From sequence record SRR20825010_5515: a DNA stretch of 51,817 nucleotides; one strand, written 5' to 3'. The translations under genes were made by a program, and so were the position numbers. Under the pieces are notes generated by a model that was not told the DNA's origin, ran no database searches, and worked only from the letters and a program-made list of their open reading frames with translations. Below, in pieces: positions 18,623 through 36,891 of this stretch. Every line of letters starts with the position of its first letter. The stretch's first letter is position 1.

Positions 18623-18686
18623 AATTCTAAGTGTACAACTTAATATGCATTTGATAATTTGATGTAAACCCTAATAAAACAAAAGA

Positions 18687-19347: not shown

Positions 19348-19484
19348 TGGAGCTCATTCTCTGTCAATAGACCTGTTTGGGTAGGTTGTTTTTTTTTTGG
19401 AAGAAGTATTAAATACCCGTATTTATTGGGTTAGGTGTGAATTGAGGTACCAACAGTCGAGGAAAGTACACGGAAATTAGCATT
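19348..19484. repeat. att-junction copy A (mnmE core deleted)
   Basis: 19422-19482 matches 24388-24448 at 50/61 nt ungapped; the left flank also resembles 24273-24337. Confidence 0.75.
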
Positions 19485-19514
19485 AGTCCTTAAAAAGATA
19501 ATTGGCGTAGAAAA

Positions 19515-19811
19515 TCATTTAGCCAATCCTTTAATTTCGCTACCAAAGATAAGGAACATTATAATCTCATATTTTTTGCCTAATTTTTCCCTAAGGATTC
19601 CAAAGGCCTTAGTAATTTGAGCTTCAACAGTTTTTATAGAGACGTTTAGGTGTTCCGAAATTTCAATGTTGGTGAGTCCTTCTTTTTTGCTTAAGATAAA
19701 TATTCTCTGGCATTTGGGGGGGAGGTTTTTTATTTCAGTATTCACTATCGTAATTATGCGTTCAATAATATTCTCATCAGTTTCCTCTACGACTTCTCCC
19801 AGTGTCTCTAA
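19515..19811 (-). pseudogene. Truncated ECF sigma factor (region 4 only)
   Basis: LETLGEVVEETDENIIERIITIVNTEIKNLPPKCQRIF..KLGKKYE closely parallels the C-terminus of 5807-6403; TAA at 19812-19814 directly upstream; region 2 absent. Confidence 0.85.
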
Positions 19812-20103
19812 TTAATAAGAATGACTTTATTTTCATGATTTTCATGATGTAAATGTTTTAATTACTAATTCACCTGTTTCCAAAATTTCTAGAAAAACTT
19901 ATAATTAATTCAAAGTATAGTTTAAATATTAATGCGTAAGGAAGAATTGGATATTTGGTGGACATGGAATAAGTTTCGATTGACAAATGGAAATACCACT
20001 CAATTTTGATATTCCATCTACGAAAACTGGTTGTATGTCATCAAATTTCTTGATGTTAAGTATATTTCTTAATTTTAATAGAGACTTTTTGAAAACGGAA
20101 CTT

Positions 20104-21192
20104 ATGGCCACTCTGCGTCGATTCCAAGATTCCATCAGCCTGAAAACCATCGGGCTCCATATCCTTTTTTGGTTGTTTATAGTTATTTATTTTGCCTGGG
20201 GGTTTGGCTTTAATGTTGATCCAAAAAAGTCTTTTATCAACTCTTTATATTTTTTACCGGGACACATTATTATGGTGTATTCCCTGCTCTATTTTTTGGT
20301 ACCCAGATTCCTGCTCAAAAGCAAATTTTTGCATTTTTTTGTCGGGCTTTCCGTTGTAATGTTGTTCTGTGTTCTTTACACTATTTTGGCCCAACTACAA
20401 TTGTCGTCCAATATAGACGATTTTAAGGGAATGACAGTAACAGTAGGTAGGAACGTATTGCCTTTTTTACATGTTGGGGGAATCGCTTTGTCGATCAAGT
20501 TGTTGAAATACTGGTATTTGCAAAGGAAGCGGACTATTGAGGCTGAACAGCAGAAAACCGTTGCGGAATTAAAATTGTTGAAGGCGCAATTACATCCCCA
20601 TTTTTTATTCAATACACTTAACAATTTATATTCGCATACGTTGGAATCCTCTCCTAGATCGCCGGAGATTGTGATGAAACTTTCTGGACTTTTACGGTTT
20701 ATGATCTATGAAAGTAATGTACCAAAAATCTCCTTGGTGAAGGAGATCGAATTATTGCAAAACTATATCTCTCTCGAAAAGTTGCGTTATGGTGATAGGT
20801 TGGATCTGTCCTTAACCATTACAGGCGATATTGGGCAATATCAGATAGCTCCCTTGCTATTGCTGCCTTTTTTGGAAAACGCATTTAAACATGGGACCAG
20901 TAGGCAGATTGACACCTGTTGGATAAGCTTTTATCTTTCCATGAACGGTTCCACAATGTGCTTCAAATTGGTGAACAGTATAGATCCTTATGAGGCACAA
21001 ACCAGAATTGGGGGATTGGGCCTTCAAAATGTACGGCAACGACTGGAACTTCTATATAAACATAACCACAATTTGGAAACTGTGATGTTGGACGATGTTT
21101 TCGTTGTAAGCCTAGAAATCAATTTAGAAGTATTGGAGAAACAATATGAGGACGAACTGGTTTTAACCTTATCAAATCAATTGAAATTTTGA
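20104..21192 (+). CDS. LytS/YehU-type sensor histidine kinase
   Basis: TM N-terminus; LKAQLHPHFLFNTLNNLY, ENAFKHG, GLGLQNVRQRL; likely start at the ATG at 20104. Confidence 0.92.
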   Translation: MATLRRFQDSISLKTIGLHILFWLFIVIYFAWGFGFNVDPKKSFINSLYFLPGHIIMVYSLLYFLVPRFLLKSKFLHFFVGLSVVMLFCVLYTILAQLQLSSNIDDFKGMTVTVGRNVLPFLHVGGIALSIKLLKYWYLQRKRTIEAEQQKTVAELKLLKAQLHPHFLFNTLNNLYSHTLESSPRSPEIVMKLSGLLRFMIYESNVPKISLVKEIELLQNYISLEKLRYGDRLDLSLTITGDIGQYQIAPLLLLPFLENAFKHGTSRQIDTCWISFYLSMNGSTMCFKLVNSIDPYEAQTRIGGLGLQNVRQRLELLYKHNHNLETVMLDDVFVVSLEINLEVLEKQYEDELVLTLSNQLKF

Positions 21193-21300
21193 AATACGCC
21201 ATAACAATTATAGATGGTTACCTAACTAGAATTTAATGTTCTAGAGCACCTGAGCTATAGAAATTGCTGTTGCAATTATAAACTAACAACTATTTGACAG

Positions 21301-22020
21301 ATGAAATATAATTGTATTATTGTGGATGATGAACCCCATGCGATCAAGATCCTTGAAAGCTATATTAAGTCTCTAGATCAACTAAAGATAGTCGGAATCT
21401 GCAGTAACGGTTTCAAAGCAATCAATATTATGAACAACGAAAAGGTGGATCTTATATTTCTTGATATCAATATGCCAAAATTACTGGGTACTCAGTTATT
21501 AAAGACACTTCAATCTCCCCCTAAGGTTATTTTTACTACGGCCCATAAGGATTATGCTGTTGAGGCATTTGAACTGGATGCCGTTGATTATCTGTTAAAA
21601 CCTATTTCCTTTGAGCGGTTCTTAAAGGCGGTGAACAAGTTTTGCCACACCACCAATGTTGATGTGGCTCCTGTGGATCATGGCACAGGGTTTTTATATT
21701 TTAGGGCCGATCGGAAAATGGTAAAAGTTTTTTTAGAGGATATTCTTTATATAGAAAGTTATAAGGACTACATAGTGATCCATAAAAAAACTGATGTAGT
21801 CAAGGTCAAGCTTACGATCAGTGCCGTTGAAAAAATGTTGCCACAGAATTTATTTTTGCGGATCCACCGTTCCTTCCTGGTTGCTATTAACCAAGTAACG
21901 GCCTATACGAAATACGATGTTGAAATTGGGAAAATAGAACTGCCCATTGGTAGAAGCTTTTCCTGCGTAATCCAAAAGTTGACGGACAATAACTCTATCA
22001 TTTCAGGCTTTGAGGAATGA
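21301..22020 (+). CDS. LytTR-family response regulator
   Basis: IVDDEP, FLDINMP, FTTAH, DYLLKP receiver domain; FLRIHRSF LytTR domain. Confidence 0.95.
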   Translation: MKYNCIIVDDEPHAIKILESYIKSLDQLKIVGICSNGFKAINIMNNEKVDLIFLDINMPKLLGTQLLKTLQSPPKVIFTTAHKDYAVEAFELDAVDYLLKPISFERFLKAVNKFCHTTNVDVAPVDHGTGFLYFRADRKMVKVFLEDILYIESYKDYIVIHKKTDVVKVKLTISAVEKMLPQNLFLRIHRSFLVAINQVTAYTKYDVEIGKIELPIGRSFSCVIQKLTDNNSIISGFEE

Positions 22021-22021
22021 T

Positions 22022-22499
22022 CTAATAATTTAAAAGCAATAATTTCAGCTCCAGACCAAAAGTTGTTTTGGTAGGAGAACTGGCGACAAATTCGTAGTTC
22101 CATGTTCCCAAAATATTTTTGATGTAGATACCGATATAAAATACCTTGGAAAGTTGATAGTTTCCATTTACTAAGATAAGAACCTCTTAGGGGACCATAA
22201 TTGTATTGATCACCGACCCGTAGCACTTTATTGACCGGAGAGCCGTTATAAAAAATTCCGGGATTTGTATTGGCCGCAACATTCCTCCGCGAAAAGAAAT
22301 CATAGTTTTATATCCAACGGGAAATAAGGGTAGCATAAAATTTGTTGATCCCGATATTAAATGTGGTACTTAGTTTATTTTTTGGGGTATTTATTGAAAG
22401 ATCGTTGTTCGTAACCTTTCCGTCAAAATTTCCACCGTTTTTCAAATGGTTTTTGTCCAACGAATAATCATAGAAGGAATAGTAAAAGAAAAGCCATAT
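22022..22499 (-). pseudogene. Decayed C-terminal fragment of a TonB-dependent receptor
   Basis: YSFYDYSLDKNHLKNGGNFDGKVTNNDLSINTPKNK..RWI*NYDFFS..YNYGPL, a frameshift, then VNGNYQLSKVFYIGIYIKNILG..TTFGLELKL; barrel-end pattern. Confidence 0.6.
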
Positions 22500-22563
22500 A
22501 AAAAATTAAGCCATGGCCTTAATTAAAAGCCAGAGCTTAATGAATCCCATTTGAGAGTGGATT

Positions 22564-23946
22564 TTATTCTAATTCTCTTAGATTATTATGATAAACAAAT
22601 GCAGCTAATAGTCTCCCCATTTTTTCACCCTCAATTATATCTTGTCGGAAATGATAACCTATGTATATTCTGGAAAGTGAAATATCATGCGCAAGTTGGG
22701 AGAAACTTTCATAGCTTCTATTTGTCTCCGGAAGGCTAATACTTGCTATGGTAAATGATTTTTTATCCTTACCAAAGTACAATTTGAACAGTTCTGCGGC
22801 AGCTCCGCCATTCGCGGCGTGGGAGGATGGGTAAGAAGGTGTTGGTGGCGTTGTTCTTACTTCCTGACGTTGAGGTATAATCCAGTTGGGATCTCCAGCG
22901 GTATTATCGTTCCCATCGTTCTCTCCTTCCCTTATCGCCGTAATGGGTCTCCAGCTATTATAGAAATATTTGGCTTCAAAAACGCTGATATGGATATCTG
23001 CCTGTACCATGTGGGTAAGTGCAAGAAGCCTGGCAGTCTCATATCCGTTAAACTTTCCCTCGATAGCAAAAGTTCTGGCAATACGATTCATGGCACTTGG
23101 GGAATTCTCAATAAAGAACGCTCCCATGTCTAATTGCTCTTGGGTTCGATTGGGGCATTCGTTGCAGCCCAATAACTTAACTTCATCATAATCAGAAGCG
23201 TATTCTTGGGAATTGATCGGATATGGTGGACCAGGCCTAAACTGTTGTCCGGAAGTTATGCCGAATGGAACTACATTTCCCCAATCCGGGGCATAGACGG
23301 CATTTTCTGGCCAAGCGGGAGGATTCGCTAAAGTAAATGGTATATAAGATCTATATTCACCTGGCCCTGTACCTTGATCATAGGTAGTAAATTTGGGCCT
23401 TAGGTCATTTAGCCTTTTTTGCAAAATAGCGGCTGCCGCCTCCATACCTATCCCAATTCCTTTTTCTTTAAAATCCGAATCCTCCATTTTCGAGAGGCAT
23501 TCCACTAAAAGATCGTCAGCGCTCGACTTCCAACCTGGGGCCACAATAACAAGTACATCATGTGCAGCTTGTGCCACGGCCGCATCTGCGATTTTCGCTA
23601 CTTCTTCCTTTGAAACTCCCTCCGGGTTTGCCCTACTGTTATCAAGGGCGTATGTTTCAAACTTGGGAACAACATTATTCAATGCGTCGTGCATTGCCAA
23701 GGTTACCATGGCATATGCTCTGGATTCCGGAGGGGGTGGGCTTAAATTGTCAATAGCCAAACTAATTGCATTGTCCCACTTTAAAACCATTTCATTGTTA
23801 TAAGATTTTATCATTTCATTATACAATAATTTCGGATCTGGTACAGGAACAGGAATAGGGTCAGGATCTAGAGTATCCGTTTCGCAAGCACTTATTGCTA
23901 CCAACAAAATTACAGTGCAACCAAAAAGCTTAACATTTTTATTCAT
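22564..23946 (-). CDS. Vanadium-dependent haloperoxidase-like lipoprotein (PAP2 superfamily)
   Basis: Lipobox ISAC; vanadate motifs AKYFYNSWRP, YPSSH, SRIYIGYHF..D; MHDALN N-terminal helix. Confidence 0.88.
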   Translation of the reverse strand: MNKNVKLFGCTVILLVAISACETDTLDPDPIPVPVPDPKLLYNEMIKSYNNEMVLKWDNAISLAIDNLSPPPPESRAYAMVTLAMHDALNNVVPKFETYALDNSRANPEGVSKEEVAKIADAAVAQAAHDVLVIVAPGWKSSADDLLVECLSKMEDSDFKEKGIGIGMEAAAAILQKRLNDLRPKFTTYDQGTGPGEYRSYIPFTLANPPAWPENAVYAPDWGNVVPFGITSGQQFRPGPPYPINSQEYASDYDEVKLLGCNECPNRTQEQLDMGAFFIENSPSAMNRIARTFAIEGKFNGYETARLLALTHMVQADIHISVFEAKYFYNSWRPITAIREGENDGNDNTAGDPNWIIPQRQEVRTTPPTPSYPSSHAANGGAAAELFKLYFGKDKKSFTIASISLPETNRSYESFSQLAHDISLSRIYIGYHFRQDIIEGEKMGRLLAAFVYHNNLRELE

Positions 23947-24353
23947 GACAGTATATTTTTAAGATTACATGTTAAAAATATATCATTCCCTTATCCGGAA
24001 ATTTTAGCCATGATGTATAACCGATTTAACGGTAAGAAGGAAGTATTTTGATCGACAAACGGAATTTTTAATTTCATCTCAAATCAATATGATTTCAACG
24101 CAGCTGACCTAAAGTTTTATCCAAATGATGTATAACCAAGAGTATCGCCCAAAAACTTTATTTAATGTTATGCACAAGAATGAAAAGCAGATTGTTCCAA
24201 TAAAAATCTGGGGCTACTCGATAAATAAACTGGCCTAAAAGAGGTTTACTATTGTGTATACAATATAAATATTGGAGCAACATTTTCATAGCCTTGCAAA
24301 AGGAGGCGTTTTAGTAGGGTATTTGTTTTTCCTTTGGATATTAACTTTTTTAG

Positions 24354-24448
24354 TTACTTTCCGATACAGAAATATGAAAGGCCTATGTTTATTGGGTTAT
24401 ATTGAAATTGAGGTACAAAAAGTCGCTGAAAGTACAGGGAAATCAGCA
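24354..24448 (-). mobile_element. att-junction copy B: duplicated mnmE 3' end plus arm
   Basis: 24354-24371 reverse complement TTCTGTATCGGAAAGTAA = FCIGK*, next to ATTGAGGTAC (24407-24416). Confidence 0.8.
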
Positions 24449-24614
24449 ATATTTAATGAAATACAATTACGACAGACGGTCCTTATACCCCTCCTTTCGT
24501 TTCCCGATCAAAAAAAATATACAATAGCATTTTGTACTTTCATCCAAGTTTTTCCCTTAGAATATAAATGTCTTGGTTATTTGATTTTCAACAGTCTCTA
24601 AAACCATTACCTAC

Positions 24615-26870
24615 CTAAAAACGATAGGTATAAACCGCCTTCATCGCCGCTCCCTGTTGTGTTGTAAAAAGTCTTCTATTCAATGTTGGGTTGTTTAGCC
24701 AGTTGTGGTTGTACACAAAAAAAATGTCGGTACCAGGGGTAATTATCCATCTAAAACGGGTGTTGGTCCCAAGAATGTCGCTTATATCATCAAATTGAAT
24801 GTTGGACGAAAGTGAAATATCGGGTGTAAAATCAAGCCCAAGATCTACCTGGAATAAATTGGTGCTAAATCCACTGTTTTCAGCACTTACTTGGGCATGC
24901 GTGTACCCACTGCTTAGATTAATACCAAGTGCTGGTCGAATGGTTAGGCCCATAACCAGCCTTCTAATATTTCCGGTCCAAAATCCTCCGGCTTCATAAC
25001 CAATTGATCCGGATACCTTGCGAAAGGATGCAGAAGATGCCTGCAATTCGTAACCCCAATTAACGTATTTCCCTGGAGCTACAATAACCGTACTGTCACC
25101 AAGAATATCAAAGTCTTCATTAAGGAATTCAAAGCCCCTAGAGACTTCAACACCTAAATTATCACCAGATTCAAATCTGATCGTTCCCAAGTTAAACCGA
25201 AGATTTTCGGTAAGAAGTTTATTTTCCAATGAAGTGAGATACTCATAATAAACGCCCCATTCTATTTCTCTTATAAACTGACTCTTTTCAAATAGGGGAG
25301 CATAGTTAATTGCCGGTTGCAACCTTTTAAAACCGTTACGTTGGTTAAACCCGATTGCTGGATCATACTCATCTCCAAATTCCCTATATGAAACCCAAGC
25401 AGACCAGGGTTGGTTGGGAAAATTAAAACGAAAGCCCCGGACTGATCTATCAGATATGGAGGTGGAATCATTAGAGGGTAAAGCGGCGCTGTGCGCAACA
25501 AAAAAGGCTGAGAACTGTAGTGTGTTATCACCTAGAAATTCTGAAGTACTTAAGTTTAGATCGGTTCCCCATGTTTTTCTGTCTTGAATTGGGTTGCCCA
25601 ACAATATATCGTCTTCGGTGCTTCTATAGGTATATATTAGGCCGATAGAACTCTCCTTCCAGAAATTTCTTCTATATCTGGCCACTGAAAAATTTTCTGG
25701 ATTCAGTTCTCCTTCCCTTCCTGTACGTACATGCAATAGTGCAATGTTGCTCTTGCCTATATTTCCTATAAGACGACCTCCATACTTAATAGGAATAGGT
25801 ATCCCGTTCACCAGTCCGATTCTGCGACTAAAATAAGGGTCTACATTACTTGATGGCGCAAATTCCCAAATTGAGGATCCCTCAAGAAAAAAATCTCTTT
25901 TCTCTGGGAATCGCAAAGGAAAACGAGTAAGATTTATTTGTCGATTGTCCACCTCGGTCTGTGCAAAATCGGTATTGTAGGTAATCGATGCTTTCAATTG
26001 GGATGTAATATTGTAATTAAGGTCAAACCCAAGGTCCATGGAAGAAGCACTGCTGTACTCAGCCTTCTCCTCATCATATATTTTGCTGGACTGGGTAATG
26101 CCATAAGGGATAAATTCCAAACCTAATCCCTGCGAATGACCAACTAGCCCCGTAAGAATACCGGCATTCTGCGGTCGTAACAATCCCTGGTTACGGCGAT
26201 GACCTGTCCATAATTGTTCTTCGTTTTTACGGCGTATGGTCCTTTGAAAATTAATTCCCCAAACATCGCTTTTCGGATCAAAGTTTATGCTGCGAAAAGG
26301 GATTTTGATTTCTGCGGACCAACCAAAATCGCCAATATAAGTCCATGCATTCCATATACCATCCCAGTCTTTGTTCAAGGTTTGGCCCTGGCCAGAAGAA
26401 ATGAGACCGTCTCCGCGTAATCCCAAGGGATTTATTTCGAAAAAATAGGCACTTCGCTTGTCCATAAATGTATCAAAAATCCATCTGAAACGATCATCTG
26501 TCTCTAGGGATGCGTCCCTTTTCTTTTGAAAAGTCTTTATATCGGAAGGACTACTATCATAACAAACAACTGCGATATAAATATTTTGGCTATCAAAGGC
26601 AATTCGTATTTCCGTTTGCTCTGTTGGTTTAGCCCCTTCTTTGGGTTCTTGCATTAAGAAATTGCCATTACCCGGAATAGTAGTCCAAAATTCTTCATCC
26701 ACAATCCCGTCCAGACGAAGCTCAATACCATTAAGTGGATACCCAATTATTTGCTTTAAATCATTTTCATTATCCATGTCCTGACCAAACCCTAGAACAG
26801 GTATAAGGTATATGGGTAACTTATAAATGACATATATCAGAATTTTCTTAAAGTGGTTCTGGAAATTCAT
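24615..26870 (-). CDS. CBM9-like plus DUF5916 outer-membrane protein
   Basis: LDGIVDEEFW, AYFFEINPLG, WSAEIKIPF; NTDFAQTEVD..FPEKRDFFLEG; C-terminal YTYRF. Confidence 0.85.
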   Translation of the reverse strand: MNFQNHFKKILIYVIYKLPIYLIPVLGFGQDMDNENDLKQIIGYPLNGIELRLDGIVDEEFWTTIPGNGNFLMQEPKEGAKPTEQTEIRIAFDSQNIYIAVVCYDSSPSDIKTFQKKRDASLETDDRFRWIFDTFMDKRSAYFFEINPLGLRGDGLISSGQGQTLNKDWDGIWNAWTYIGDFGWSAEIKIPFRSINFDPKSDVWGINFQRTIRRKNEEQLWTGHRRNQGLLRPQNAGILTGLVGHSQGLGLEFIPYGITQSSKIYDEEKAEYSSASSMDLGFDLNYNITSQLKASITYNTDFAQTEVDNRQINLTRFPLRFPEKRDFFLEGSSIWEFAPSSNVDPYFSRRIGLVNGIPIPIKYGGRLIGNIGKSNIALLHVRTGREGELNPENFSVARYRRNFWKESSIGLIYTYRSTEDDILLGNPIQDRKTWGTDLNLSTSEFLGDNTLQFSAFFVAHSAALPSNDSTSISDRSVRGFRFNFPNQPWSAWVSYREFGDEYDPAIGFNQRNGFKRLQPAINYAPLFEKSQFIREIEWGVYYEYLTSLENKLLTENLRFNLGTIRFESGDNLGVEVSRGFEFLNEDFDILGDSTVIVAPGKYVNWGYELQASSASFRKVSGSIGYEAGGFWTGNIRRLVMGLTIRPALGINLSSGYTHAQVSAENSGFSTNLFQVDLGLDFTPDISLSSNIQFDDISDILGTNTRFRWIITPGTDIFFVYNHNWLNNPTLNRRLFTTQQGAAMKAVYTYRF

Positions 26871-27206
26871 GTGTTTTGCATCACATTTATTTTATCAATA
26901 ATGTCCGTCCTAATTTTCATTATAAATTCATTTGACCTTAATGTCCACAAGAATCATAATGATTGTGCCTTTTGGGAATACTTCCTAAAGATATATAGCG
27001 CCTTGGATTGATTATTCCCAACTTGGGTGACTATTGCATAAGTTAGTAAAAAATTCCGTCACGGCCATTATCAATGGGATGAGGTCACCTTAATGAAGTA
27101 TTGGAAAACAAAAACCGTTCTAATCAGGGAAGCCTAAAATTATTGATGATAAACCACTTATTTGGCTAAGCTAGTGCTACTTTATTATGGCTTTAATAAC
27201 AATAGG

Positions 27207-27584
27207 TTACATTACTTTATTGGCTAAATATTTTTGTACTTCATACACATCTATGCTTTTATTGAATTTCTTACTTACACTAGGTGTATCCTCACTGGAA
27301 ATCCAAATCTTTAGCTCTGCATCCAAATCGAATGTTCCGGATGTTTCCAAGGAGAAGCGAGAGATGTTTTTATAGGGTAGAGATTTATATTCTATTTTGC
27401 TTCCCGTAAGGCCCTGAATATCAACTAAAATCAACCTTTTGTTAGGGAACATAAATACATCCCTGAACAAGGTAAATCCGAGTTCTATCTGCTCATCGTT
27501 GATAAGTAACCTTGCGTATTTTTGGTTGAGTTTCTCGGATGAGACCTCACTCGCGTTTCCTAATATTTTGTTTAATAAACCCAT
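27207..27584 (-). CDS. Bacterial PH-domain protein (YvbH-like)
   Basis: RD.F.F..KRLILVDIQGLTGSKIEYKSLPY..ETSGTFDLDAELKIW. Confidence 0.88.
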   Translation of the reverse strand: MGLLNKILGNASEVSSEKLNQKYARLLINDEQIELGFTLFRDVFMFPNKRLILVDIQGLTGSKIEYKSLPYKNISRFSLETSGTFDLDAELKIWISSEDTPSVSKKFNKSIDVYEVQKYLANKVM

Positions 27585-27906
27585 ATGAAATTAAGTTTTT
27601 TCTAGTTGTATAAATGTATGACATTTGTTACTAATCAATCTTTAGATTGAGTACATGCTTCCTTCTTTTGCGGTATTTACACTTTCATCACCTGCTCTCT
27701 TTTCCACCTACGAATACATTAAAAAGAATGAAAATAGCTCGGATTCTCTAGTCATGAACGTCACCTAAATTTGGGAGGCCGTCAAAAAATGATAATATTG
27801 TACTAATAATCAGTTCTAATTAAAGGAAGCCCACCGATATAGTCAACGTTTTACCAAAATTAGAATTTGATTAATCTTAAAAACGATTGTGATAAATTAA
27901 AAACAA

Positions 27907-29697
27907 ATGATAAAAAATAAATCCATTGCAGTTTTACCATTTGTTAATTTGAGTAATAATATTGATAACGAATACTTCTGTGATGGTTTAACAGAAGAAA
28001 TTATTTATGCGCTCGCAAAAATTAAAGATTTAGTTGTAACCTCTCGCACATCCTCATTTTATTTTAAAAACAAAAAAGTAACTGCTAATGAGATAAGAGA
28101 GAAATTAAAGGTGGCTACATTTATTGAAGGCAGTGTAAGAGCATCAAAAAAGAAAATGCGTATTACGGTGCAAATGATTGATACATTAGAGGACTTTCAT
28201 TTTTGGTCAAAAACTTTTGATAGAAATCCAGATGATATTTTTGAAATTCAAGATGAAATAAGCTTGTTTATAGCAGAAAAATTACGTGAGCATGTGGGTC
28301 ATATTGAGATAGAAGATAAGCTAGTAGCACCTATTGATGTGCCTGTAAATATTTATAGGGAATATCTGAAAGGTAGATATTACTTAATGAAATTAGATTA
28401 TGATAGTTCATTAAAAGCTATCGAAATCTTTAAAAGTATTATAAAGAAATCACCAAAGTTTGCAAACCCTTATTTAGATATTAATCAAGCCTATACCTTT
28501 ATGGGAACTATGGGATTGTTGCCAGCATTTGAAGCTTTTCAAAAAGCACAACCGTTTTTTGAAAAAGCAATGTCTCTTAATCCAAATTCATCAAGAGTAC
28601 AATTAAATTTATCCTGGATAGAATGTTGGCAAAACTGGAATCTTAAGAAAGCTTACGAACATGCCAATAAGGCTTTGGAGATTCAACAAGCAGACGATAT
28701 TTATTTAACTATTTCTAATTTTTTAACAGTGGAAGGAAAATTAGATGCAGCACGTAATTATCTTGACAAAGCTTTGCAGTTAGACCCCTATGCCGCTATC
28801 AACCATCACTATAAGGGGTTTTTATATTACTTACAAGAAGATTACAGCACTGCAATACCTTTCTTAAAAAAGGCATTGGAGCTAGATCCAATGTTACCCT
28901 TTCCTCCAATTTATATAGGGATTTGTTTATTGATGTCGGGCAAACCAAATGAAGCTTTGACATATTTCAGTTCACTTGAAGGAGTTTCTGTGAAAGACCT
29001 CACCAAATTAGGAGGTAAAACTATGTGTTATGCAAAGCTCAATGAAACGGAAAAGTGCAATGATGGATTAAAAGAATTAGAAACCTATTTAACAACAGCA
29101 CTAGTAGATAAGGCATTTACATTTTTGATATTAGTTAATGCCTTATTAGGAAATAATGAGAAGGTAGTTGATTTAGTAACACAAGCATACCATAGCCGCT
29201 TACCTTTAATTTTATTATTAAATCCATCCCCAATTCTTAAACCTGTAAAAAATCACAAAGGGTTTAAAGAAATAATGTTGAAAGCAATTCCTGATAATGT
29301 AAACTATAAACAGAAAAAAAAGTATAAACAATCATTACTGGATACTGACGAAATTAAAAATTACAGCAAAGAACTAAAGCTGATTATGGAGGATTATAAA
29401 TTGTATTTAAATCCAGACTTATCATTAAAGGATTTAGCTTCCTACCTAGAACTTCCTGCCAATTATGTCTCACAATTATTGAACCTAGGATTTCAAAAAA
29501 ACTTCTCAGAATATGTGAATTCTTATAGAGTAAACGAATTTAAAGAACGTATTCTACTAGAAGAAAATAAAGGCTTGACCATAATGGCTGTAGCATACGA
29601 CAGTGGTTTTAATTCTAAAACCGTATTTAATACCTTTTTTAAAAAAATAGAATGTACAACGCCCAATAGCTACCTTAGGTCAAACCAAGCTAATTAG
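27907..29697 (+). CDS. TolB-like/TPR/AraC-HTH transcriptional regulator
   Basis: SIAVLPFVNLS..EYFCDGLTEE N-terminus, TPR repeats, C-terminal NFSEYVNSYRV..SGFNSKTVFNTFFKK. Confidence 0.9.
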   Translation: MIKNKSIAVLPFVNLSNNIDNEYFCDGLTEEIIYALAKIKDLVVTSRTSSFYFKNKKVTANEIREKLKVATFIEGSVRASKKKMRITVQMIDTLEDFHFWSKTFDRNPDDIFEIQDEISLFIAEKLREHVGHIEIEDKLVAPIDVPVNIYREYLKGRYYLMKLDYDSSLKAIEIFKSIIKKSPKFANPYLDINQAYTFMGTMGLLPAFEAFQKAQPFFEKAMSLNPNSSRVQLNLSWIECWQNWNLKKAYEHANKALEIQQADDIYLTISNFLTVEGKLDAARNYLDKALQLDPYAAINHHYKGFLYYLQEDYSTAIPFLKKALELDPMLPFPPIYIGICLLMSGKPNEALTYFSSLEGVSVKDLTKLGGKTMCYAKLNETEKCNDGLKELETYLTTALVDKAFTFLILVNALLGNNEKVVDLVTQAYHSRLPLILLLNPSPILKPVKNHKGFKEIMLKAIPDNVNYKQKKKYKQSLLDTDEIKNYSKELKLIMEDYKLYLNPDLSLKDLASYLELPANYVSQLLNLGFQKNFSEYVNSYRVNEFKERILLEENKGLTIMAVAYDSGFNSKTVFNTFFKKIECTTPNSYLRSNQAN

Positions 29698-29747
29698 TTC
29701 GGATTTAAAAAATAGAACTATTACGATCAGCCTTAGTGCTAGTTTTG
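29691..29747 (+). promoter_or_regulatory. Putative AraC-TPR box plus -7 element, copy 1
   Basis: TAATTAGTTC-N12-TAGAACT (29691-29719), then TAGTTTTG at 29740. Confidence 0.65.
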
Positions 29748-29776
29748 TCTCGTAACAAATTATTCAATTTAAGGAG

Positions 29777-30367
29777 ATGAAGATTTATATCAAATTATTC
29801 TTGGCATTAATGATGCTTAGTGGGTGTAATAATTGGACGAATCCTGATTTTACAAAACAGCCAACCATTTCAGATTACAAAGTAGGAGAAAAATGGATAT
29901 GGAAGTATAAAGGAGTAACCACCACAGGTGAGGTAAGGTCTGAAGGGAGAGATAAACGGGAAATAATAGAAGTTAAGGGTGAATTACTAATAACTATTGG
30001 TAAGGATACGACACCTGTCTCAGAAATTGTAAAACCCGAAGTAAGTAATACACCAAAATACGATTGGCCTCTTAAAGTAGGTAAAAAGTGGGTTTATGAA
30101 GAAAACTGGACAAGTCAAGATGGAACAACAGGAAAACAACGGCTAAATGCTGAAATTGTATCCTATAAAGAAGAAAAAGTAGAAGCAGGAAACTTTGTGG
30201 CCTACACGATTCATTATAATGGTAAAATCACAAATTCCAGAGGTTATAATGCAGTTGTAGATGAAGTTTGGCTTTATGCACCTAAGGTTAAAAACTTCAT
30301 TAAGCTAACTCAAAAGCAGGATGATTTTGTGTATAACGAGGAACTAGTTGAGTATTCAAACAAGTAA
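29777..30367 (+). CDS. Hypothetical lipoprotein
   Basis: Lipobox LSGC; internal repeat KVGEKW/KVGKKW; EKVEAGNF motif. Confidence 0.8.
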   Translation: MKIYIKLFLALMMLSGCNNWTNPDFTKQPTISDYKVGEKWIWKYKGVTTTGEVRSEGRDKREIIEVKGELLITIGKDTTPVSEIVKPEVSNTPKYDWPLKVGKKWVYEENWTSQDGTTGKQRLNAEIVSYKEEKVEAGNFVAYTIHYNGKITNSRGYNAVVDEVWLYAPKVKNFIKLTQKQDDFVYNEELVEYSNK

Positions 30368-30389
30368 TTTTTGTAATGTCCATTTGTAA

Positions 30390-30914
30390 ATGACACAGTT
30401 TAATTTAATCGATATTGATAATCCCTACTTCACATCAGCCTGGAAATTATATGAAGAAGCCTTTCCAGTATATGAGAGAAGAACATTAAAGGCCCAATCC
30501 CATCTATTAAAGAACCCTGTTTACAAGTTTGATGTATTTATTGAAAAGAATGTGTTTATAGGGTTCATTATGTGGTGGGATTTCAAAGATTTTCAATACA
30601 TAGATCACTTTGCTGTAACAAAATCTCAAAGAAATAAAGGTAATGGAGCCAAAATATTGGAAGATTTTATAAAAGGGAATTCTAAGCCCACGTTATTAGA
30701 AGTTGAATTACCAGATAGCTCAATTAATACAAAAAGAATTAAGTTTTATGAGCGATTAGGGTTTAAATTAAACCAGCATGAATATAAAGTGCCATCAAGT
30801 ATTGATGATCGTAAAATTGATTTATTGGTTATGACGCATCCTAGAATGATATCCAAAGAAAATCTGAGTGAGTTCGTTTCCAATAACCACCCTGTTATTT
30901 TTAAGTCATTTTGA
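30390..30914 (+). CDS. GNAT-family N-acetyltransferase
   Basis: YEEAFP..ERR, HFAVTKSQRNKGNG acetyl-CoA motif, RIKFYERLGF. Confidence 0.88.
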   Translation: MTQFNLIDIDNPYFTSAWKLYEEAFPVYERRTLKAQSHLLKNPVYKFDVFIEKNVFIGFIMWWDFKDFQYIDHFAVTKSQRNKGNGAKILEDFIKGNSKPTLLEVELPDSSINTKRIKFYERLGFKLNQHEYKVPSSIDDRKIDLLVMTHPRMISKENLSEFVSNNHPVIFKSF

Positions 30915-30920
30915 TAATTC

Positions 30921-30977
30921 TAATTAGTTCTGGTTTTTAAAGTAGAACTTTTTAGTTCCGAAATCTACTTAATTTTA
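30921..30977 (+). promoter_or_regulatory. Putative AraC-TPR box plus -7-like element, copy 2
   Basis: TAATTAGTTC-N12-TAGAACT (30921-30949), then TAATTTTA at 30970; spacing identical to copy 1. Confidence 0.65.
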
Positions 30978-31003
30978 TCAAAAATCAGATCAACATACAA
31001 ATA

Positions 31004-31162
31004 ATGGAAACTAAAAAAAGTAAAAAAGGTGTAAAACTGGGAATAGGAATTATTCTAGGTATGATAGTAGGATATTTAACCTCAAATATGCAGTTATGGT
31101 TTGTTTTAGGTATTGCCATAGGAGCGGCTTTAGAGTATGGTTCCTCAAAAAAATCATCCTAA
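31004..31162 (+). CDS. 52-aa glycine-zipper membrane microprotein (absent from the ORF track)
   Basis: METKKSKKGVKLGIGIILGMIVGYLTSNMQLWFVLGIAIGAALEYGSSKKSS*; two Gly-rich TM helices; promoter-like site upstream. Confidence 0.75.
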   Translation: METKKSKKGVKLGIGIILGMIVGYLTSNMQLWFVLGIAIGAALEYGSSKKSS

Positions 31163-31375
31163 ATCTACATTCTAGAAAGTTCAATAGTAATGTAAGTGAA
31201 GAATCCATCCAGTTTTACAATGTATAAAGGAGATTTATTTGTTGTTACTAAAGGAGTAAATCATATAGTGTCCTAAGATAAGGAATGAGTAATCTTATTA
31301 ATTGAAAGTAAAACAACACTACATACTGGAAATGTAATCAATGAGATTACGAAATCAATCAATCAATCAATCAAT
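31163..31375 (+). pseudogene. Cupin-domain gene remnant
   Basis: IYILESSIVM*VKNPSSFTMYKGDLFVVTKGVNHIVS*DKE*VILLIESKTTLHTGNV; cupin motif-2-like segment with three stops. Confidence 0.65.
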
Positions 31376-31384
31376 AATCAATCA
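31353..31384. repeat. (AATC)n simple sequence repeat
   Basis: (AATC)5 AAT (AATC)2 just upstream of the ATG at 31400. Confidence 0.8.
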
Positions 31385-31399
31385 AAAAACGAACAGTCT

Positions 31400-32257
31400 A
31401 TGTTTTTCAAATCAAAAGAAGGAAAAGAAAAAATCATAACCCTTTACAATCAAAAATTAAATGAGCTGAATATTGAATTTTCAGAAAAACCTGTAGAAAC
31501 AAAGTTAGGAGTCACCAATGTTATTTCTACTGGCGATACTAAAAACCCTCCTTTAGTACTGATTCACGGAACAGGTGGTTGTGCACCTCAAATTTTAGAT
31601 TCCTTCCCAAACCTAGTATCAAAATATTGTGTCTATGCAGTAGATGTGCTAGCACAACCCAATAAAAGTGCAGAGAATAGACTAGATATGAAATCCTTGG
31701 ATTATGGTAAATGGCTTATTGAAGTTATTATAAAACTAAGATTAAAAAATGTAACCCTAGTTGGTTTTTCCTTTGGGGGTTTAATTGGTTTAAAAGCTCT
31801 AGAATTTAATGAGACGCCTGTAAAACAGGTATTCTTAGTCTCCCCAGTGTATATCGTTAATGGTAACCCAATACTTAACGTATGGAAAATGTTTATACCA
31901 TTAAAAAAGTTTATAAAAACAAATAATCAAGAATACATTAAAAAAGTAATGGAAGTACTTTTTTCTGATTACGATGATTTTGCATTGGCCTACATGTCAA
32001 CTACATTTCAATACTGCAACATGGATTTTTCACCTCTTCCGGTAATTTCTAAAAACAGGGCCCAAAACATAAAAACACCCATCACCATTTTCGCTGCCGA
32101 AAAAGACATCATGTTTCCAGGTAAAAAAATGATAAAACGGGCAAAGCAAATATTTCCTTCTTCAAAAGAACTTCTTTTGTTAGAAGGGGCTAAACATGTA
32201 CCAAAAGCAACAGATTTTAAAAAAATAGAAGAATTAATACTAGATAAAAGTGAATAG
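31400..32257 (+). CDS. Alpha/beta hydrolase (Ser nucleophile)
   Basis: LIHGTGG, GFSFGG nucleophile elbow, AEKD, GAKH. Confidence 0.88.
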   Translation: MFFKSKEGKEKIITLYNQKLNELNIEFSEKPVETKLGVTNVISTGDTKNPPLVLIHGTGGCAPQILDSFPNLVSKYCVYAVDVLAQPNKSAENRLDMKSLDYGKWLIEVIIKLRLKNVTLVGFSFGGLIGLKALEFNETPVKQVFLVSPVYIVNGNPILNVWKMFIPLKKFIKTNNQEYIKKVMEVLFSDYDDFALAYMSTTFQYCNMDFSPLPVISKNRAQNIKTPITIFAAEKDIMFPGKKMIKRAKQIFPSSKELLLLEGAKHVPKATDFKKIEELILDKSE

Positions 32258-32261
32258 TAAA

Positions 32262-33224
32262 ATGAAAACTATAAAAGAAACAATAAGTTTTCCTGAGCCA
32301 ACTATAATCCCAATAAATGGAATTGAGCTAGAAGTTTTTGAAGCGGGTAATGAAAATATAGGAAATCCAATTGTATTGTGTCACGGTTTTCCTGAACATG
32401 CGTTTTCGTGGCGTTATCAAATTCCAGCATTAGTAGAGGCGGGTTACCATGTGATTGTTCCAAATCAAAGAGGTTATGGCAACTCTTCTCTTCCAACTGA
32501 AGTTACTGAATATGATATAATTAATTTAACAGATGATCTAGTGGCCTTACTAGAATATTATAATTATACAAAAGCAACATTCATTGGTCATGATTGGGGA
32601 GCAAATGTGGTTTGGCATCTAGCGTTATTGCACCCGGAACGTTTACATAAAGTGATAAATCTTGCCTTGCCTTATCAAGAGCGAGGAGAAAGACCATGGC
32701 TAGAGGTTATGGAAGCCATTTTTGGTGAAGATTTCTATTTTGTCCATTTTAACAAACAACCAGCTGTGGCAGATACCGTATTAGAGCAAAATACAGAGAA
32801 CTTTCTGCGAAATTTATTTCGTAAGAACGTACCTCTTGCTCCACCAGAGCCAGGAATGTTAATGATGAATCTTGCCAAAGCAAAAAAACCGCTTGGAGAG
32901 CCTATAATGAGCGACGCTGAAATAAAAGTATTTATAACATCTTTTAAATCATCTGGATTTTCTGGAGCAATTAATTGGTATAGAAACTTAGACAGAAATT
33001 GGCACATTATGGCCAATGTAAAACCAAGAATTGAACATCCTACTCTCATGATTTATGGGGAAAAAGATGTCATTCCAAAATCTCAAAATTTAAGGGATTT
33101 TGCACCAAATTTAGATGTAGTGAGTTTAAATTGTGGCCATCATATTCAACAAGAAACATTTGAGGAAACTAATGAGGCTATCTTAACATGGTTGGCAAAT
33201 CAAAGAAATAATAAGGTTTTGTAG
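32262..33224 (+). CDS. Epoxide hydrolase-like alpha/beta hydrolase
   Basis: HGFPE, NQRGYG, GHDWGA (Asp nucleophile), NWYRN, CGHH; likely start at the ATG at 32262. Confidence 0.88.
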   Translation: MKTIKETISFPEPTIIPINGIELEVFEAGNENIGNPIVLCHGFPEHAFSWRYQIPALVEAGYHVIVPNQRGYGNSSLPTEVTEYDIINLTDDLVALLEYYNYTKATFIGHDWGANVVWHLALLHPERLHKVINLALPYQERGERPWLEVMEAIFGEDFYFVHFNKQPAVADTVLEQNTENFLRNLFRKNVPLAPPEPGMLMMNLAKAKKPLGEPIMSDAEIKVFITSFKSSGFSGAINWYRNLDRNWHIMANVKPRIEHPTLMIYGEKDVIPKSQNLRDFAPNLDVVSLNCGHHIQQETFEETNEAILTWLANQRNNKVL

Positions 33225-33656
33225 CCATTCCCTACTTAGAAAAGGCTTCCATATTAAAAATCAAGGTAACGGGCAATAAGAATCGGTCTGGAAAAGAAAA
33301 ACGGTACGGAAAGATCAAAAACGAAACCGAGCAGACCTAGGAAAATGATTATTCATTGCTTGTAGGAACTTAAAAAGGGCTTCTATATGCATCCGGAAAA
33401 CTCCATTTAACCATAGAAAGTCCTTAGTAAGGGAAAACAGAACCCGGTACAATCAACACGGTCTTCATGTTTGGATCCTATTTATTCGCGTGACAGGCGG
33501 TTGCAGCCACAGGAAGACTTAGTTATTGGCACATGTTTTTATTTTCCCGTCACATATTGAGGTTAAGCAAAATCACCAACCTTTAATGAGGCGCAATTAA
33601 ATAGAAGTTTGAGCTTCCACCGTCATCATATGAGGAATATACTCCTGGCTGAATTG

Positions 33657-33730
33657 CTATTTTCCGACACAGAAAGTGACCAACCTATATTTTAAAGGGG
33701 TTCCCAAGCTTTGAGGTGCACATGAGGTAC
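33657..33730 (-). mobile_element. att-junction copy C: duplicated mnmE 3' end plus arm
   Basis: 33657-33674 reverse complement TTCTGTGTCGGAAAATAG = FCVGK*, next to TTGAGGTGCACATGAGGTAC (33711-33730). Confidence 0.75.
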
Positions 33731-33834
33731 AAAACTACATTTTTGGATATTGAACAATAAAGACATCTTAGTCGTGGTCAGTCTTTTAACTAAAAAAGAA
33801 GATTTAATTGATATAAATCATAGATTATGCCTTT

Positions 33835-33907
33835 TGAGCCGATTAAATATCTTAATCGGCTCATATTTTTACTATATTTGAGCCGATAATAACTTTTAAT
33901 AGGCTCA
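33835..33907. promoter_or_regulatory. Twin 29-bp palindromic operators flanking the fic -7 element
   Basis: TGAGCCGATTAA-atatc-TTAATCGGCTCA (33835-33863) and TGAGCCGATAAT-aactt-TTAATAGGCTCA (33879-33907); TATATTTG at 33873-33880. Confidence 0.8.
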
Positions 33908-35016
33908 TGCAATACAATTGGCAACATAAAAACTGGCCTAATTTCAACTATGATGCATCAAAAATTGATGAACTCGTTTTGGAGTTTGCTTTGGAAACTG
34001 GTGAAGTAAAAGGGTTGATAGATGGCTTAACCAAAGAAGAACAACAAGAGGCCATTATTCAATTTATGATAAATGAGGCCATAAAGACCTCGGAAATAGA
34101 AGGGGAGTATCATAGCCGCGAGGATGTGATGTCGTCCATCCAAAACCGTTTGGGGATTCATGCTATATCATCTAACATCAGAGATATTAAAGCCAAAGGT
34201 ATTGCAGAACTGATGGTTGAAGTTCGTGAAAATTATTCAACGGAGCTATCAGAAAACCTAATTATAAACTGGCACCAGATTTTATTTTCAAACTCTCGCA
34301 CTATAAAGGTTGGCACCTATAGAACAGGAACGGAACCTATGGTTATTATTTCTGGTAGTATTGGTAGAGAGGTTGTTCATTACAAAGCACCACCATCAGA
34401 ACTACTAAAAAAAGAAATGATTCAGTTTGTCAATTGGTACAACGCTTATAGTGTAGACTCCAATAACATTAAAGAGAGTTTAATCAAAACAGCTATTGCA
34501 CATTTGTACTTTGAGTCGATACACCCGTTTGAAGATGGTAATGGACGTATAGGTCGTGCAATAGCTGAAAAATGTCTCTCGGAATCATTAGGGCGACCGT
34601 TGATTTTGAGTATCTCCACCTCCATAGAGAAAGGTAAAATGGCCTATTATGATGCTCTTAAGCAGGCCCAAAGGACATTGGATATTACTGAGTGGATCTG
34701 TTATTTTTCTCAAACTATTTTGAATGCTCAAAAACAGGCCAAGACCATTATAAGGTTCACGCTGGAAAAGGCCAAGTTCCTAGATAAATATAAATCGAAG
34801 TTAAACGATCGTCAACTAAAGGTAATTATGAAAATGCTTGCCTTTGGCATCGAAGGATTTAAAGGGGGAATGACGGCTAAGAAATATATATCCATAGCCA
34901 ATACATCCAAGGCAACTGCTACCCGAGATTTGCAGGATTTGGTTGAAAAACAATGTTTACTCCCAATGGGTGCGGGACGTGGAATGCATTATGAGCTAAA
35001 TTTAGAAATATTTTAA
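33907..35016 (+). CDS. Fic-family protein with a DUF4172-type N-terminus and a C-terminal wHTH
   Basis: HPFEDGNGRIGR catalytic motif; TSEIEG inhibitory motif; SKATATRDLQDL HTH. Confidence 0.93.
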   Translation: MQYNWQHKNWPNFNYDASKIDELVLEFALETGEVKGLIDGLTKEEQQEAIIQFMINEAIKTSEIEGEYHSREDVMSSIQNRLGIHAISSNIRDIKAKGIAELMVEVRENYSTELSENLIINWHQILFSNSRTIKVGTYRTGTEPMVIISGSIGREVVHYKAPPSELLKKEMIQFVNWYNAYSVDSNNIKESLIKTAIAHLYFESIHPFEDGNGRIGRAIAEKCLSESLGRPLILSISTSIEKGKMAYYDALKQAQRTLDITEWICYFSQTILNAQKQAKTIIRFTLEKAKFLDKYKSKLNDRQLKVIMKMLAFGIEGFKGGMTAKKYISIANTSKATATRDLQDLVEKQCLLPMGAGRGMHYELNLEIF

Positions 35017-35179
35017 ACAGCCAAGGCTGCATTAACACTTTGAAAAAGATTCCTCCCCACCCCCCCCAAAAAAAATCTTACTCAATAACTTTGAGCATGG
35101 ATCCTAATTCGATTTTATAGTGTTCGCACGGATTGGCCTAATAGTAGGTTGTAGAAGCGTGGCGTTAAACGGACTTAGT

Positions 35180-36577
35180 TTATTTCCCAATACAAAAGTT
35201 AGCAAATATATTCCCCAGAAGCTCATCGTTGGTCACTTGCCCTGTGATTTCTCCTAGGTGGTATAGGGCTTCTTTTACATCAATAGCCAACAGGTCGCTA
35301 GGAGTGTCTTCCTCCATACCAAATTGTACCTTTTCTATTTCTTCCAAGGCCTTTAGAAGGGAACTATAATGTCTGGTATTGGTAACAATGGTTTCGCTAT
35401 TGCGCAACGCTCCCGTATTTACAAAATCCAATAAGCGCGACTTCAGTGTTTCGACCCCTTTTCCGGTTTTGGCGGATAGCAAGTGCAGTCCCGAAATGTG
35501 GGATTGTAGATTCTCAATTTGTTCCTTATCCAATCTATCCACCTTATTGGCAATCACCAACAAGGGTTTTTGGGGATATTTAGTTTTTATTTTGTCCAGT
35601 TCCTTTATACTTGTTTTCAACTTATCGGCATGGGTGGCCATTTCCCAGGCATCTACCAATAGCACCACCACCTGGGCCTGTTCTATTTTTTCAAAAGTCT
35701 TCTTAATACCGATACTTTCCACTACATCCTTGGTATCCCTAATTCCAGCAGTATCTATAAAGCGAAATCCTATGCCTCCTATTACAATTTCATCCTCAAT
35801 GGTATCCCTAGTGGTTCCTGCTATATCGCTTACAATGGCCCGCTCCTCATTCAAAAGGGCATTGAGCAGGGTAGATTTGCCTACGTTGGGTTCCCCTACA
35901 ATGGCTATGGGAATTCCGTTTTTGATCACATTGCCCACAGCAAAGGAATCGATCAAGCGTTTAAGAATGCGTTGTATTTTGGTCAAAAGTTTTTTAAACT
36001 GTGTACGGTCCGCAAATTCTACATCCTCCTCTGCGAAGTCGAGCTCCAATTCCATTAAAGAGGCAAAGTTGAGCAGTTGGTCCCTCAATTTTTTTATCTC
36101 ATTGCTAAATCCGCCACGCATTTGTTGCATCGCTATTTGGTGACTGGCCTCGTTATCCGAGGCGATAAGGTCCGCCACGGCCTCGGCCTGACTCAAGTCC
36201 ATTTTACCGTTTAAAAAAGCGCGTAGTGTAAATTCCCCTGCATTTGCCATTCGGCAACCGTTACGCAAAAACAACTGAATTATTTGTTGTTGGATATAGG
36301 GGGAACCGTGACATGATATCTCAACAACATCCTCACCGGTATAGGAATGGGGACCTTTAAAAAGGGATACCAGAACTTCATCCAACACTTTGTCGTTTTC
36401 GGTAATATGTCCCAAGTGAATGGTATGGCTCTTTTGTTTTTGTAAATCCTTGCCCCTGATCGATGTAAAAAAAGGATTGGCCAAGGCAATGGCATCCTTA
36501 CCGGAAATACGGATTACGGCTATTGCACCGGCCCCTGAGGGTGTGGCCAAGGCAATGATGTTGTCGTTGGTAATCAT
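35180..36577 (-). CDS. mnmE: tRNA modification GTPase MnmE
   Basis: GEPNVGKS, GTTRD, DTAG, NKVD, terminal FCIGK; start at the ATG at 36577. Confidence 0.98.
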   Translation of the reverse strand: MITNDNIIALATPSGAGAIAVIRISGKDAIALANPFFTSIRGKDLQKQKSHTIHLGHITENDKVLDEVLVSLFKGPHSYTGEDVVEISCHGSPYIQQQIIQLFLRNGCRMANAGEFTLRAFLNGKMDLSQAEAVADLIASDNEASHQIAMQQMRGGFSNEIKKLRDQLLNFASLMELELDFAEEDVEFADRTQFKKLLTKIQRILKRLIDSFAVGNVIKNGIPIAIVGEPNVGKSTLLNALLNEERAIVSDIAGTTRDTIEDEIVIGGIGFRFIDTAGIRDTKDVVESIGIKKTFEKIEQAQVVVLLVDAWEMATHADKLKTSIKELDKIKTKYPQKPLLVIANKVDRLDKEQIENLQSHISGLHLLSAKTGKGVETLKSRLLDFVNTGALRNSETIVTNTRHYSSLLKALEEIEKVQFGMEEDTPSDLLAIDVKEALYHLGEITGQVTNDELLGNIFANFCIGK

Positions 36578-36891
36578 AGATTTGTAATTGACCGTAAAAA
36601 TACAATATAAAATTTTCAAACCAGTTCCACTTTTCGATGGACAAATGCAATTGTCCAAATATTTGAAATGAAGTAAGTTAACTTTGAATCCTTTGTGAAT
36701 GGTCAGTAACCGACTTTACAATAACACTCTAAAACTTCTATTTTGGGAATAGTAAAGTTTAGCACAATGATTTTGGTCATGATTATTGCAGCAAATATTG
36801 CGTAATTTTGATAGTGATCCAGTACAGTATAAAAGAGCCAATAGGGCTTTATAATTTAGGTGTATCGGGACATTCAATTTAAAATTACAAT

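Follow-up and report, generated by a model that had tools for sequence, protein, structure and literature searches.

Integrase-less modules behind mnmE in Bacteroidota DNA: probable accretion and decay of integrative elements

For the islands of Streptococcus thermophilus related to the integrative and conjugative elements (ICEs) ICESt1 and ICESt3, a three-step model of cis-mobilizable elements (CIMEs) has been described, in which decay of a resident is followed by the insertion of a newcomer in front of the relic, and a CIME retains both attL and attR (excerpts of PMC5704250). Tandem islands at ssrA of Dehalococcoides show several direct repeats within 100 kb of this gene, vary between strains, include 15 without an integration module and carry metabolic cargo (excerpts of PMC3146451). 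The trmE islands of Gammaproteobacteria, including those related to SGI1, share one 18-bp site encoding FCIGK*, occur as tandems of unrelated islands sharing this site and show mosaic homologous exchange (excerpts of PMC9035990). Here we compare with these systems an array of integrase-less modules behind mnmE (trmE) in a stretch of 51,817 nucleotides of marine Flavobacteriaceae DNA from sequence record SRR20825010_5515, which is called the window in the following and is meant at its full length. We consider it probable that the array arose by tandem accretion and decay of integrative elements, leaving CIME-like immobile relics and not a working cassette system. By comparison with related genomes, the window keeps cargo and attR alone, and its arms are the right ends of two classes of elements with tyrosine integrases. 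The sites concerned are the following, counted downward from mnmE.

35180..36658, minus strand: mnmE (trmE), tRNA-modification GTPase gene and target of integration (Pfam TrmE_N, MMR_HSR1, MnmE_helical)
35180..35197, minus strand: core c1, the last 18 bp of mnmE and current integration site, with no left arm after it
33675..33752, minus strand: attR arm of type A, right end of a class A integrative and mobilizable element (IME), with two TG(T/C)ACCTC arm-type repeats
33657..33674, minus strand: core c2 (FCVGK*), with an A-to-G change at core position 7
24372..24450, minus strand: attR arm of type B, right end of a class B element, 82 bits
24354..24371, minus strand: core c3 (FCIGK*), with one mismatch to c1 in the 8-bp exchange region
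19389..19486, minus strand: c4, a type B arm (78 bits) with a destroyed core (19389-19406) and an orthologue in genome G025
17665..17723, minus strand: c5, a degenerate type B site, 13 bits
17634..17662, no strand assigned: terminator-like hairpin after c5 (z -5.5), not specific to att sites

An earlier note, made from the sequence alone, had placed three copies of the mnmE end in one orientation with nearly all differences synonymous, and all three were located at these positions on the minus strand. Relative to c1 (FCIGK*), c2 carries five differences, four of them synonymous, and c3 carries four, all synonymous; the two extra cores stand against 0.003 FC[IV]GK* sites expected per window from base composition. 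An arm of 70-100 bp lies on the mnmE side of each extra core, and the 8-mer TGAGGTAC occurs three times in the 51.8 kb (19443, 24409 and 33723), each time within an arm. The further arm suspected at 19422-19482 was recovered at 19402-19485, with 77% identity to 24368-24451, together with a degenerate core at 19389-19406; its G025 orthologue, 91-96% identical, retains TTCTGTATC and more of the core. The idea of one arm beside every core copy stood for c2 and c3 and not for the mnmE end, which is armless, and the arms are of two types, that of c2 being just 51-58% like those of c3 and c4. Profiles were made from the arms of relatives, 13 of type A and 17 of type B; they gave 85 bits for c2, 82 for c3 and 78 for c4, the maximum in 20 shuffled control windows being 9.1 bits. 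The fifth site is faint (13 bits, with 8.4 bits for the best shuffled window under the same profile) and rests partly on orthology, because the type B profile included orthologues of c4 and c5; its orthologues in G003, G019 and G024 are clearer (49-54 bits). The sites thus form a gradient of decay, with c2 and c3 whole, c4 broken and c5 faint. Module sizes of 1505, 9285 and 4947 bp agree with the 1.5, 9.3 and 5 kb given before. The earlier remark that no integrase is visible also held: no integrase, excisionase, primase, relaxase or HigBA was found in the window by a Pfam scan of 39 open reading frames (ORFs) or by tblastn with ten element proteins (both integrases and eight mobilization, excisionase and toxin-antitoxin proteins; no match at E<=0.01). 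No left arm of class A or B lies behind any of the sites c1-c5, and an Rfam search of 17000-36000 gave no match. For the hairpin after c5, an origin as a flank captured from mnmE was rejected; eight of its 28 copies in the fetched regions follow an att site, and all seven distant copies are armless.

The first class of elements is best seen in G001, the nearest genome (98-99% identical to the window around mnmE). There, a class A element opens with an integrase gene at 190 bp from the mnmE stop and continues with cargo, an HTH_17 excisionase, a toprim primase, MobC, a PF03432 relaxase, HigBA, the arm and a YCIGK* core. The class A integrase carries the tyrosine integrase domains PF00589, PF13102 and PF17293 and was found in 13 of 25 genus genomes, as a single copy in each (one with a stop), always behind mnmE and never away from it. 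Among the best 80 of at least 359 named Bacteroidota homologues, 72 lie within 600 nt of an mnmE end and two more at 700 and 956 nt; three have too little upstream DNA, one has neither core nor mnmE, and in two a core is present while mnmE is missing from the nearest 10 kb. The hosts are Flavobacteriaceae, Chryseobacterium, Dysgonomonas and others; four of the records belong to Arenibacter and may be shared with the genus set. The c2 arm is 85-87% identical to attR of complete class A elements in G006, G011 and G025, and fic, the gene next to it in the window, lies near the right end of elements in G005, G009, G013 and G018; these alignments mark module 1 as a class A IME tail. Of the mobilization proteins, the MbpA-like MobC scored above its cut-off and the MbpB/MobP relaxase below, with PF03432 present, and no type IV secretion system (T4SS) or mating-pore gene was recognised in class A by Pfam and NCBIfam scans. 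No solved structure is close to the class A integrase, and integrase matches in phages and plasmids stay below 38%, the nearest plasmid ones being Bacteroidales integrases (32-38%). Two side observations concern this class. At loci L078 and L093, an integrase with a core just upstream and without mnmE within 10 kb may mark second tandem elements or secondary sites. In G002:C51 (L050), a bPH_1 gene 95% like that of the array lies just inside a class A right end beside HigBA, a possible capture by an IME.

The second class was reached through the c3 arm, which in 301 family genomes gave five matches outside the genus, all linked to mnmE: two are the mnmE end itself and three lie 6-29 kb downstream on the mnmE strand. 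In G201 (C31:563200-588100), a complete class B element is bounded by 26-bp direct repeats and consists of an HTH_17 gene, the integrase, a second HTH_17 gene, cargo, a type B arm and the core. The class B integrase is 34% identical to that of class A, occurs in nine of 401 family genomes, in all nine behind mnmE, and was not found in the 25 genus genomes searched. The c3 arm is 69-73% identical to attR of the complete class B elements of G201, G386 and G090. That of G386 ends with fic, two GDPD genes, SusD, SusC, FecR, an extracytoplasmic function (ECF) sigma factor gene, arm and core; this ECF gene runs in the opposite direction and is only about 30% like the genus copies. No relaxase was found among the class B ORFs scanned (G201, G386). 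Judged in the same way, modules 2 and 3 are class B tails, and modules 4 and 5 are probably so as well. The earlier note had proposed site-specific integration at mnmE in Bacteroidota and a search for an integrase beside this gene in relatives; integrases of two classes are indeed present there. Class B elements (G201 and eight others, L166-L174) combine an xis-int pair with a second HTH_17 gene and putative replication genes, and their cargo includes Schlafen, DndB-like and ABC-3C CTD4 proteins (defence-type) and an eCIS-core protein. They may be phage-satellite-like or another kind of element.

Both classes have as attB the last 18 bp of mnmE, the same 18-bp FCIGK* site that is given for SGI1-related elements in supplement rows of PMC9035990, which agrees with what the earlier note had stated of that family. 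In 20 attL/attR pairs, core positions 4, 5, 7, 8, 10 and 11 agree in all 20 and the wobble positions 6 and 9 in 18, and positions 2, 3, 12, 15 and 18 agree in only 9-13. From this we infer strand exchange within core positions 4-11, about 8 bp. Compared with c1, this region is one base off in c3, two bases off in c2 (one of them at position 7, invariant in 20/20 pairs) and destroyed in c4. The FCIGK motif is conserved and functionally important in MnmE (excerpts of 10.1101/2024.11.29.625835), and core differences would be synonymous because this motif must be restored.

The comparison shows that elements of the two Bacteroidota integrase clades insert into the last codons of mnmE and supply a synonymous FCIGK* end, so that mnmE stays whole and the old gene end comes to lie on the far side behind attR. 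We hypothesize a sequence of events that starts from this. Each newcomer would insert at mnmE ahead of the earlier resident, and sites would therefore age with distance from mnmE. Deletions would remove the mnmE-proximal left arm, integrase and mobilization genes and spare attR and the distal cargo, such as fic, toxin-antitoxin genes and SusC/D loci; G013 displays such a deletion, and similar events would have shaped the window. Homologous recombination between arm copies and between ECF sigma genes may in addition swap, fuse and delete cargo. Most likely, no module of the window is able to excise on its own.

Relatives contain stages of this kind. Left arms were surveyed in 22 of the 25 genus genomes, the other three having no usable gene end or flank. 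A class A left arm with integrase was present in 13 of the 22 (12 of them were used in the profile), and G013 has a partial class A left arm with the first integrase codons fused to fic-attR. In G003, G004, G018 and G021, a class B left arm without integrase lies behind mnmE (16-31 bits, with a profile from other genera), and neither left arm was found in G008, G014, G023 and G024. In G006, a class A IME stands in front of the same class B left arm, which makes an IME-CIME tandem, and tandems of IME and relic occur in G001, G006, G011 and G025. Tandem accretion and integrase-less relics, as envisaged by the earlier note, are thus supported, as the arms are right ends of integrase-bearing elements and such tandems exist in relatives. 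The best candidate for a true CIME is a 21.9-kb integrase-less stretch of G003 (C6:339500-361420) with a class B left arm, a whole type B right arm, a matching TGTATCGG exchange region and a SusC/D locus. Two further arrangements were noted: the first 4.2 kb behind mnmE in G013:C15 (L035) hold two tiny tandem relics, of which the first retains a stub of the integrase and the second begins at a hybrid right-arm/core/left-arm junction, and two tandem SusC/D modules of G001 (C1:1917819-1918700 and 1937840-1938700) end in 659 bp that are 89% identical and comprise the ECF end, the fic operator without fic, and an arm.

Between and beyond the sites, the window contains the following features.

35073..35139: short repeat that recurs in intergenic positions of class A elements and at various further sites in G001
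33907..35016, plus strand: fic (DUF4172 and Fic), distal cargo of mnmE elements, 88-93% identical in nucleotides to copies near attR in G005, G009, G013 and G018
33833..33907, no strand assigned: paired GAGCCGAT palindromes upstream of fic, a putative operator
33258..33474: remnant of a multi-copy repeat with 5-6 partial copies in G001
27907..33224, plus strand: low-GC (32%) block with a TPR-AraC regulator, a 196-aa ORF, GNAT and two alpha/beta hydrolases
24615..27584, minus strand: bPH_1 and DUF5916 genes, distal half of a class B relic
19987..23946: histidine kinase and LytTR regulator (plus strand) and a PAP2/vanadium-haloperoxidase-like gene (minus strand)
19524..19811, minus strand: C-terminal remnant of an ECF sigma gene, a trace of a lost SusC/D locus, 94% identical in nucleotides to a G001 ECF gene
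18173..19322, plus strand: 122-aa ORF and 4HB sensor-domain gene
5807..17571: ECF sigma-FecR-SusC-SusD locus with three sulfatases, the probable oldest module

The GAGCCGAT palindromes persist next to two G001 arms where fic is gone. The low-GC block is missing in the fetched regions of 22 genus genomes and present in strains of runs X2, X6 and X13, and the class B relic with bPH_1/DUF5916 still begins with a class B left arm in G003 and G018. Homologues of the genes at 19987..23946 occur in G011 with a TonB receptor between them; the PAP2 protein (22564-23946) has a weak match to a vanadium chloroperoxidase N-domain, and its G011 counterpart is followed by the TonB receptor, which the window lacks. 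The flank with the 122-aa ORF and the 4HB gene follows an att site in six relatives, with arms of A or B type. Slippage may occur at two places: a C/A homopolymer tract behind fic (35054-35070), which lacks seven bases in run X13, and an (AATC)8.5 repeat (31353-31385) immediately before the first hydrolase gene. Behind both the AraC gene (29690-29722) and the GNAT gene (30920-30952) lies a 33-bp imperfect palindromic repeat, a possible regulator site.

The earlier note had expected changes in gene content to coincide with the cores. Among homology-block ends (>=250 bp, >=78%) in 17000-35150, 13 of 54 fell into att spans; breakpoint clusters did so in 4/21 cases, compared with 7.9% of the intergenic DNA (P ~0.08), and 6/21 lay within 60 nt of att spans (P 0.18), in a test that is weak as the genomes are kin and shared arms draw block ends to cores. 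Each of c2, c3 and c4 is a breakpoint in several genomes, and many ends are internal (27586, 22490, 19810). Two strains about 98% identical (contigs of runs X6 and X13) share 24440-35194 together with mnmE and depart from the window within the c3 arm (24440) and within the ECF sigma remnant (19733); no junction at a core was found in contigs of runs X1, X6 and X13. The expectation is therefore correct for the distal ends, which are att sites, and fails for the content, which is mosaic. Modules bounded from core to core like cassettes, also proposed before, are not supported, with no left arm present and only a small share of the clusters in att spans. A joint of 19339 to 24363 in run X2 was not accepted as an excision; it comes from one metagenome contig with a 30-nt side and is compatible with a c3-like arm next to the 4HB gene, the arrangement of G003.

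The c3 arm is 83-85% like arms after ECF genes and 58-62% like arms after DUF5916 in G001, G006, G021 and G025. This suggests a fusion brought about by homologous recombination within an arm. Of the ECF copies in the genus regions, 14/25 have an arm within 3 kb (12% expected). By sequence identity, the cargo itself moves sideways: fic reaches 88-93% nucleotide identity in three genomes whose mnmE 3' ends reach 77-85%, and G001 and G013 share a 13-kb SusC/D locus at 82%, its neighbours, the mnmE 3' end and 4HB, reaching 71-72%. Three relatives (G001, G025 and G018) lack the sulfatase locus at 5807-17571, and in G024 it is closed by a type B arm, so that the array probably reaches from about 5700 to 35197.

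Arm matches are almost confined to the DNA downstream of mnmE. Of 30 matches to the two arms in the genus, 17 lie downstream of mnmE on the same contig and strand, and ten are on other contigs of genomes whose mnmE contig ends within 14 kb, with gene content that fits a continuation. Three are unlinked: G007 contributes two clear type B arms, and G009 a match that is weak and partial. Every arm match in the near-complete genomes G001 and G005 is inside the array. A core-and-arm motif common away from mnmE, named by the earlier note as a finding that would speak against it, was thus not encountered, G007 being the exception; its two arms (C37:18785-18875 and C30:18098-18161) lie behind SusC/D-ECF loci and could stem from rearrangement or secondary sites.

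Several observations weigh against accretion and decay as the explanation. Intermediates of the deletions proposed for the window were not observed, and none of the fetched loci matches its first 40 bp behind the mnmE stop. The window, G008, G014, G023 and G024 have no left arm behind mnmE, a state that calls for a deletion reaching as far as the core or for some site-specific process. Although c2 is closer to mnmE than c3, its core is more damaged. One class A element, that of G005, ends in a type B arm; arm and class are therefore not always matched. Given the absence of the class B integrase from the genus genomes, the class B parent is known from other genera only. Finally, the mnmE contig of G007 continues for 240 kb without the two unlinked arms.

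It is possible, though in our view unlikely, that the modules are attR-only cassettes mobilised in cis. An incoming IME would lend its left arm, integrase and relaxase, excise through a relic attR, carry modules to the mnmE of a new host and, by later excising without them, leave cargo and attR there, like an integron fed by visitors. This predicts modules that lack a left arm and start at a core, which is the state of the window, G008 and G024, and the whole arm and FCIGK* core of c3, the tandems of IME and relic and the high identities of fic and of the 13-kb SusC/D locus are consistent with it; transfer of a CIME-ICE tandem has been reported in another system (excerpts of PMC5704250). However, most breakpoints lie within modules or arms, no relative has a post-core flank that matches those behind c1, c2 and c3, the exchange regions of c2 and c4 are changed, and the hairpin found after several cores also occurs far from mnmE without arms. 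Moreover, the integrases that serve type A and type B arms are just 34% alike, so one visitor may not be able to use both. Equally doubtful is the wider picture of the mnmE end of marine Flavobacteriaceae as an integron-like platform without a resident integrase, where visitors of the two clades would recombine with relic attR, take up whole SusC/D loci and pass them on between species, leaving attR-only cassettes in the order of arrival.

We regard as very improbable that the array consists of complete non-autonomous cassettes of attL, cargo and attR moved by an integrase and a relaxase in trans. Two-armed relics do occur in relatives (the 21.9-kb stretch of G003 with its matching TGTATCGG, and the second G013 module), but the window holds no left arm of either class and no mobilization genes (oriT was not searched). 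Mobilization in trans had been one of the options of the earlier note; as 13 genus genomes carry the class A integrase at mnmE alone, and none was found elsewhere in the 25, the search gave no source that could act in trans. An origin of the copies by chance, or by local duplication of the mnmE end without any mobile element, can practically be dismissed, since the cores, which like many unrelated 18-mers differ from the mnmE end at 4-5 of 18 bases, keep frame and orientation where 0.003 such sites are expected, and the arms, with 78-85 bits where shuffled windows reach 9.1 at most, are ends of complete integrase-bearing elements.

Read as accreted and decayed elements, the array resembles the CIMEs of S. 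thermophilus in its 3'-end integration, the loss of integration and transfer genes and the position of newcomers ahead of relics, with the tandems in four relatives as counterparts. The window retains attR (arm and core at c2 and c3, the arm at c4) in tandem at the target without integration or transfer genes. The difference is that its modules keep attR only, attL being retained in G003, G004, G013, G018 and G021, with two-armed relics in G003 and G013; phylum, target and integrases also differ. With the ssrA islands of Dehalococcoides, as excerpted above, the array shares direct repeats near the target, strain variation, islands lacking an integration module and metabolic cargo, whereas a serine recombinase and a tmRNA target are used there, and tyrosine integrases and a protein-coding target here. 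An integron does not fit: the window has no integrase, the source integrases score 62 bits against a cut-off of 265 for integron integrases, and the modules do not have both ends exactly at a recombination site. Class A is like the canonical Bacteroidetes IMEs NBU1, NBU2, Tn4555 and Tn4399 in its tyrosine integrase, HTH_17 excisionase, primase, MbpA-like MobC and MobP relaxase without a recognised T4SS gene, with integrase and excisionase between attL and attR (G001 and others) and no recognised mating-pore genes; it differs in its target, mnmE, the window holds only tails of the elements, and class B shows no relaxase in the scanned ORFs. In the rows and excerpts of PMC9035990, SGI1-related elements share the 18-bp FCIGK* site, the tandems and the mosaic exchange; the present elements differ in their Bacteroidota hosts, Bacteroidota-type integrase domains (the integrases were not compared directly) and, in class A, a MobP relaxase of their own. 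No gene of the SGI1 backbone (rep, traN/G/H, mpsAB), which in that family is controlled by AcaCD, was named in Pfam and NCBIfam scans of the G001 and G025 elements, which included no direct search with SGI1 proteins. Accretion with decay is already established. No mnmE/trmE-targeted Bacteroidota elements were described in the literature found, by a search that mostly left out subscription journals; such elements appear undescribed, and the two integrase clades were not found described. Being widespread and restoring a conserved gene end, such an integrase could also be put to use for site-specific integration in Flavobacteriaceae, and a highly variable stack of polysaccharide utilisation loci tied to a defined recombination site offers a testable route for the movement of such loci among marine flavobacteria. 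The trmE/mnmE hotspot, known from Gammaproteobacteria, is thereby extended to Bacteroidota.

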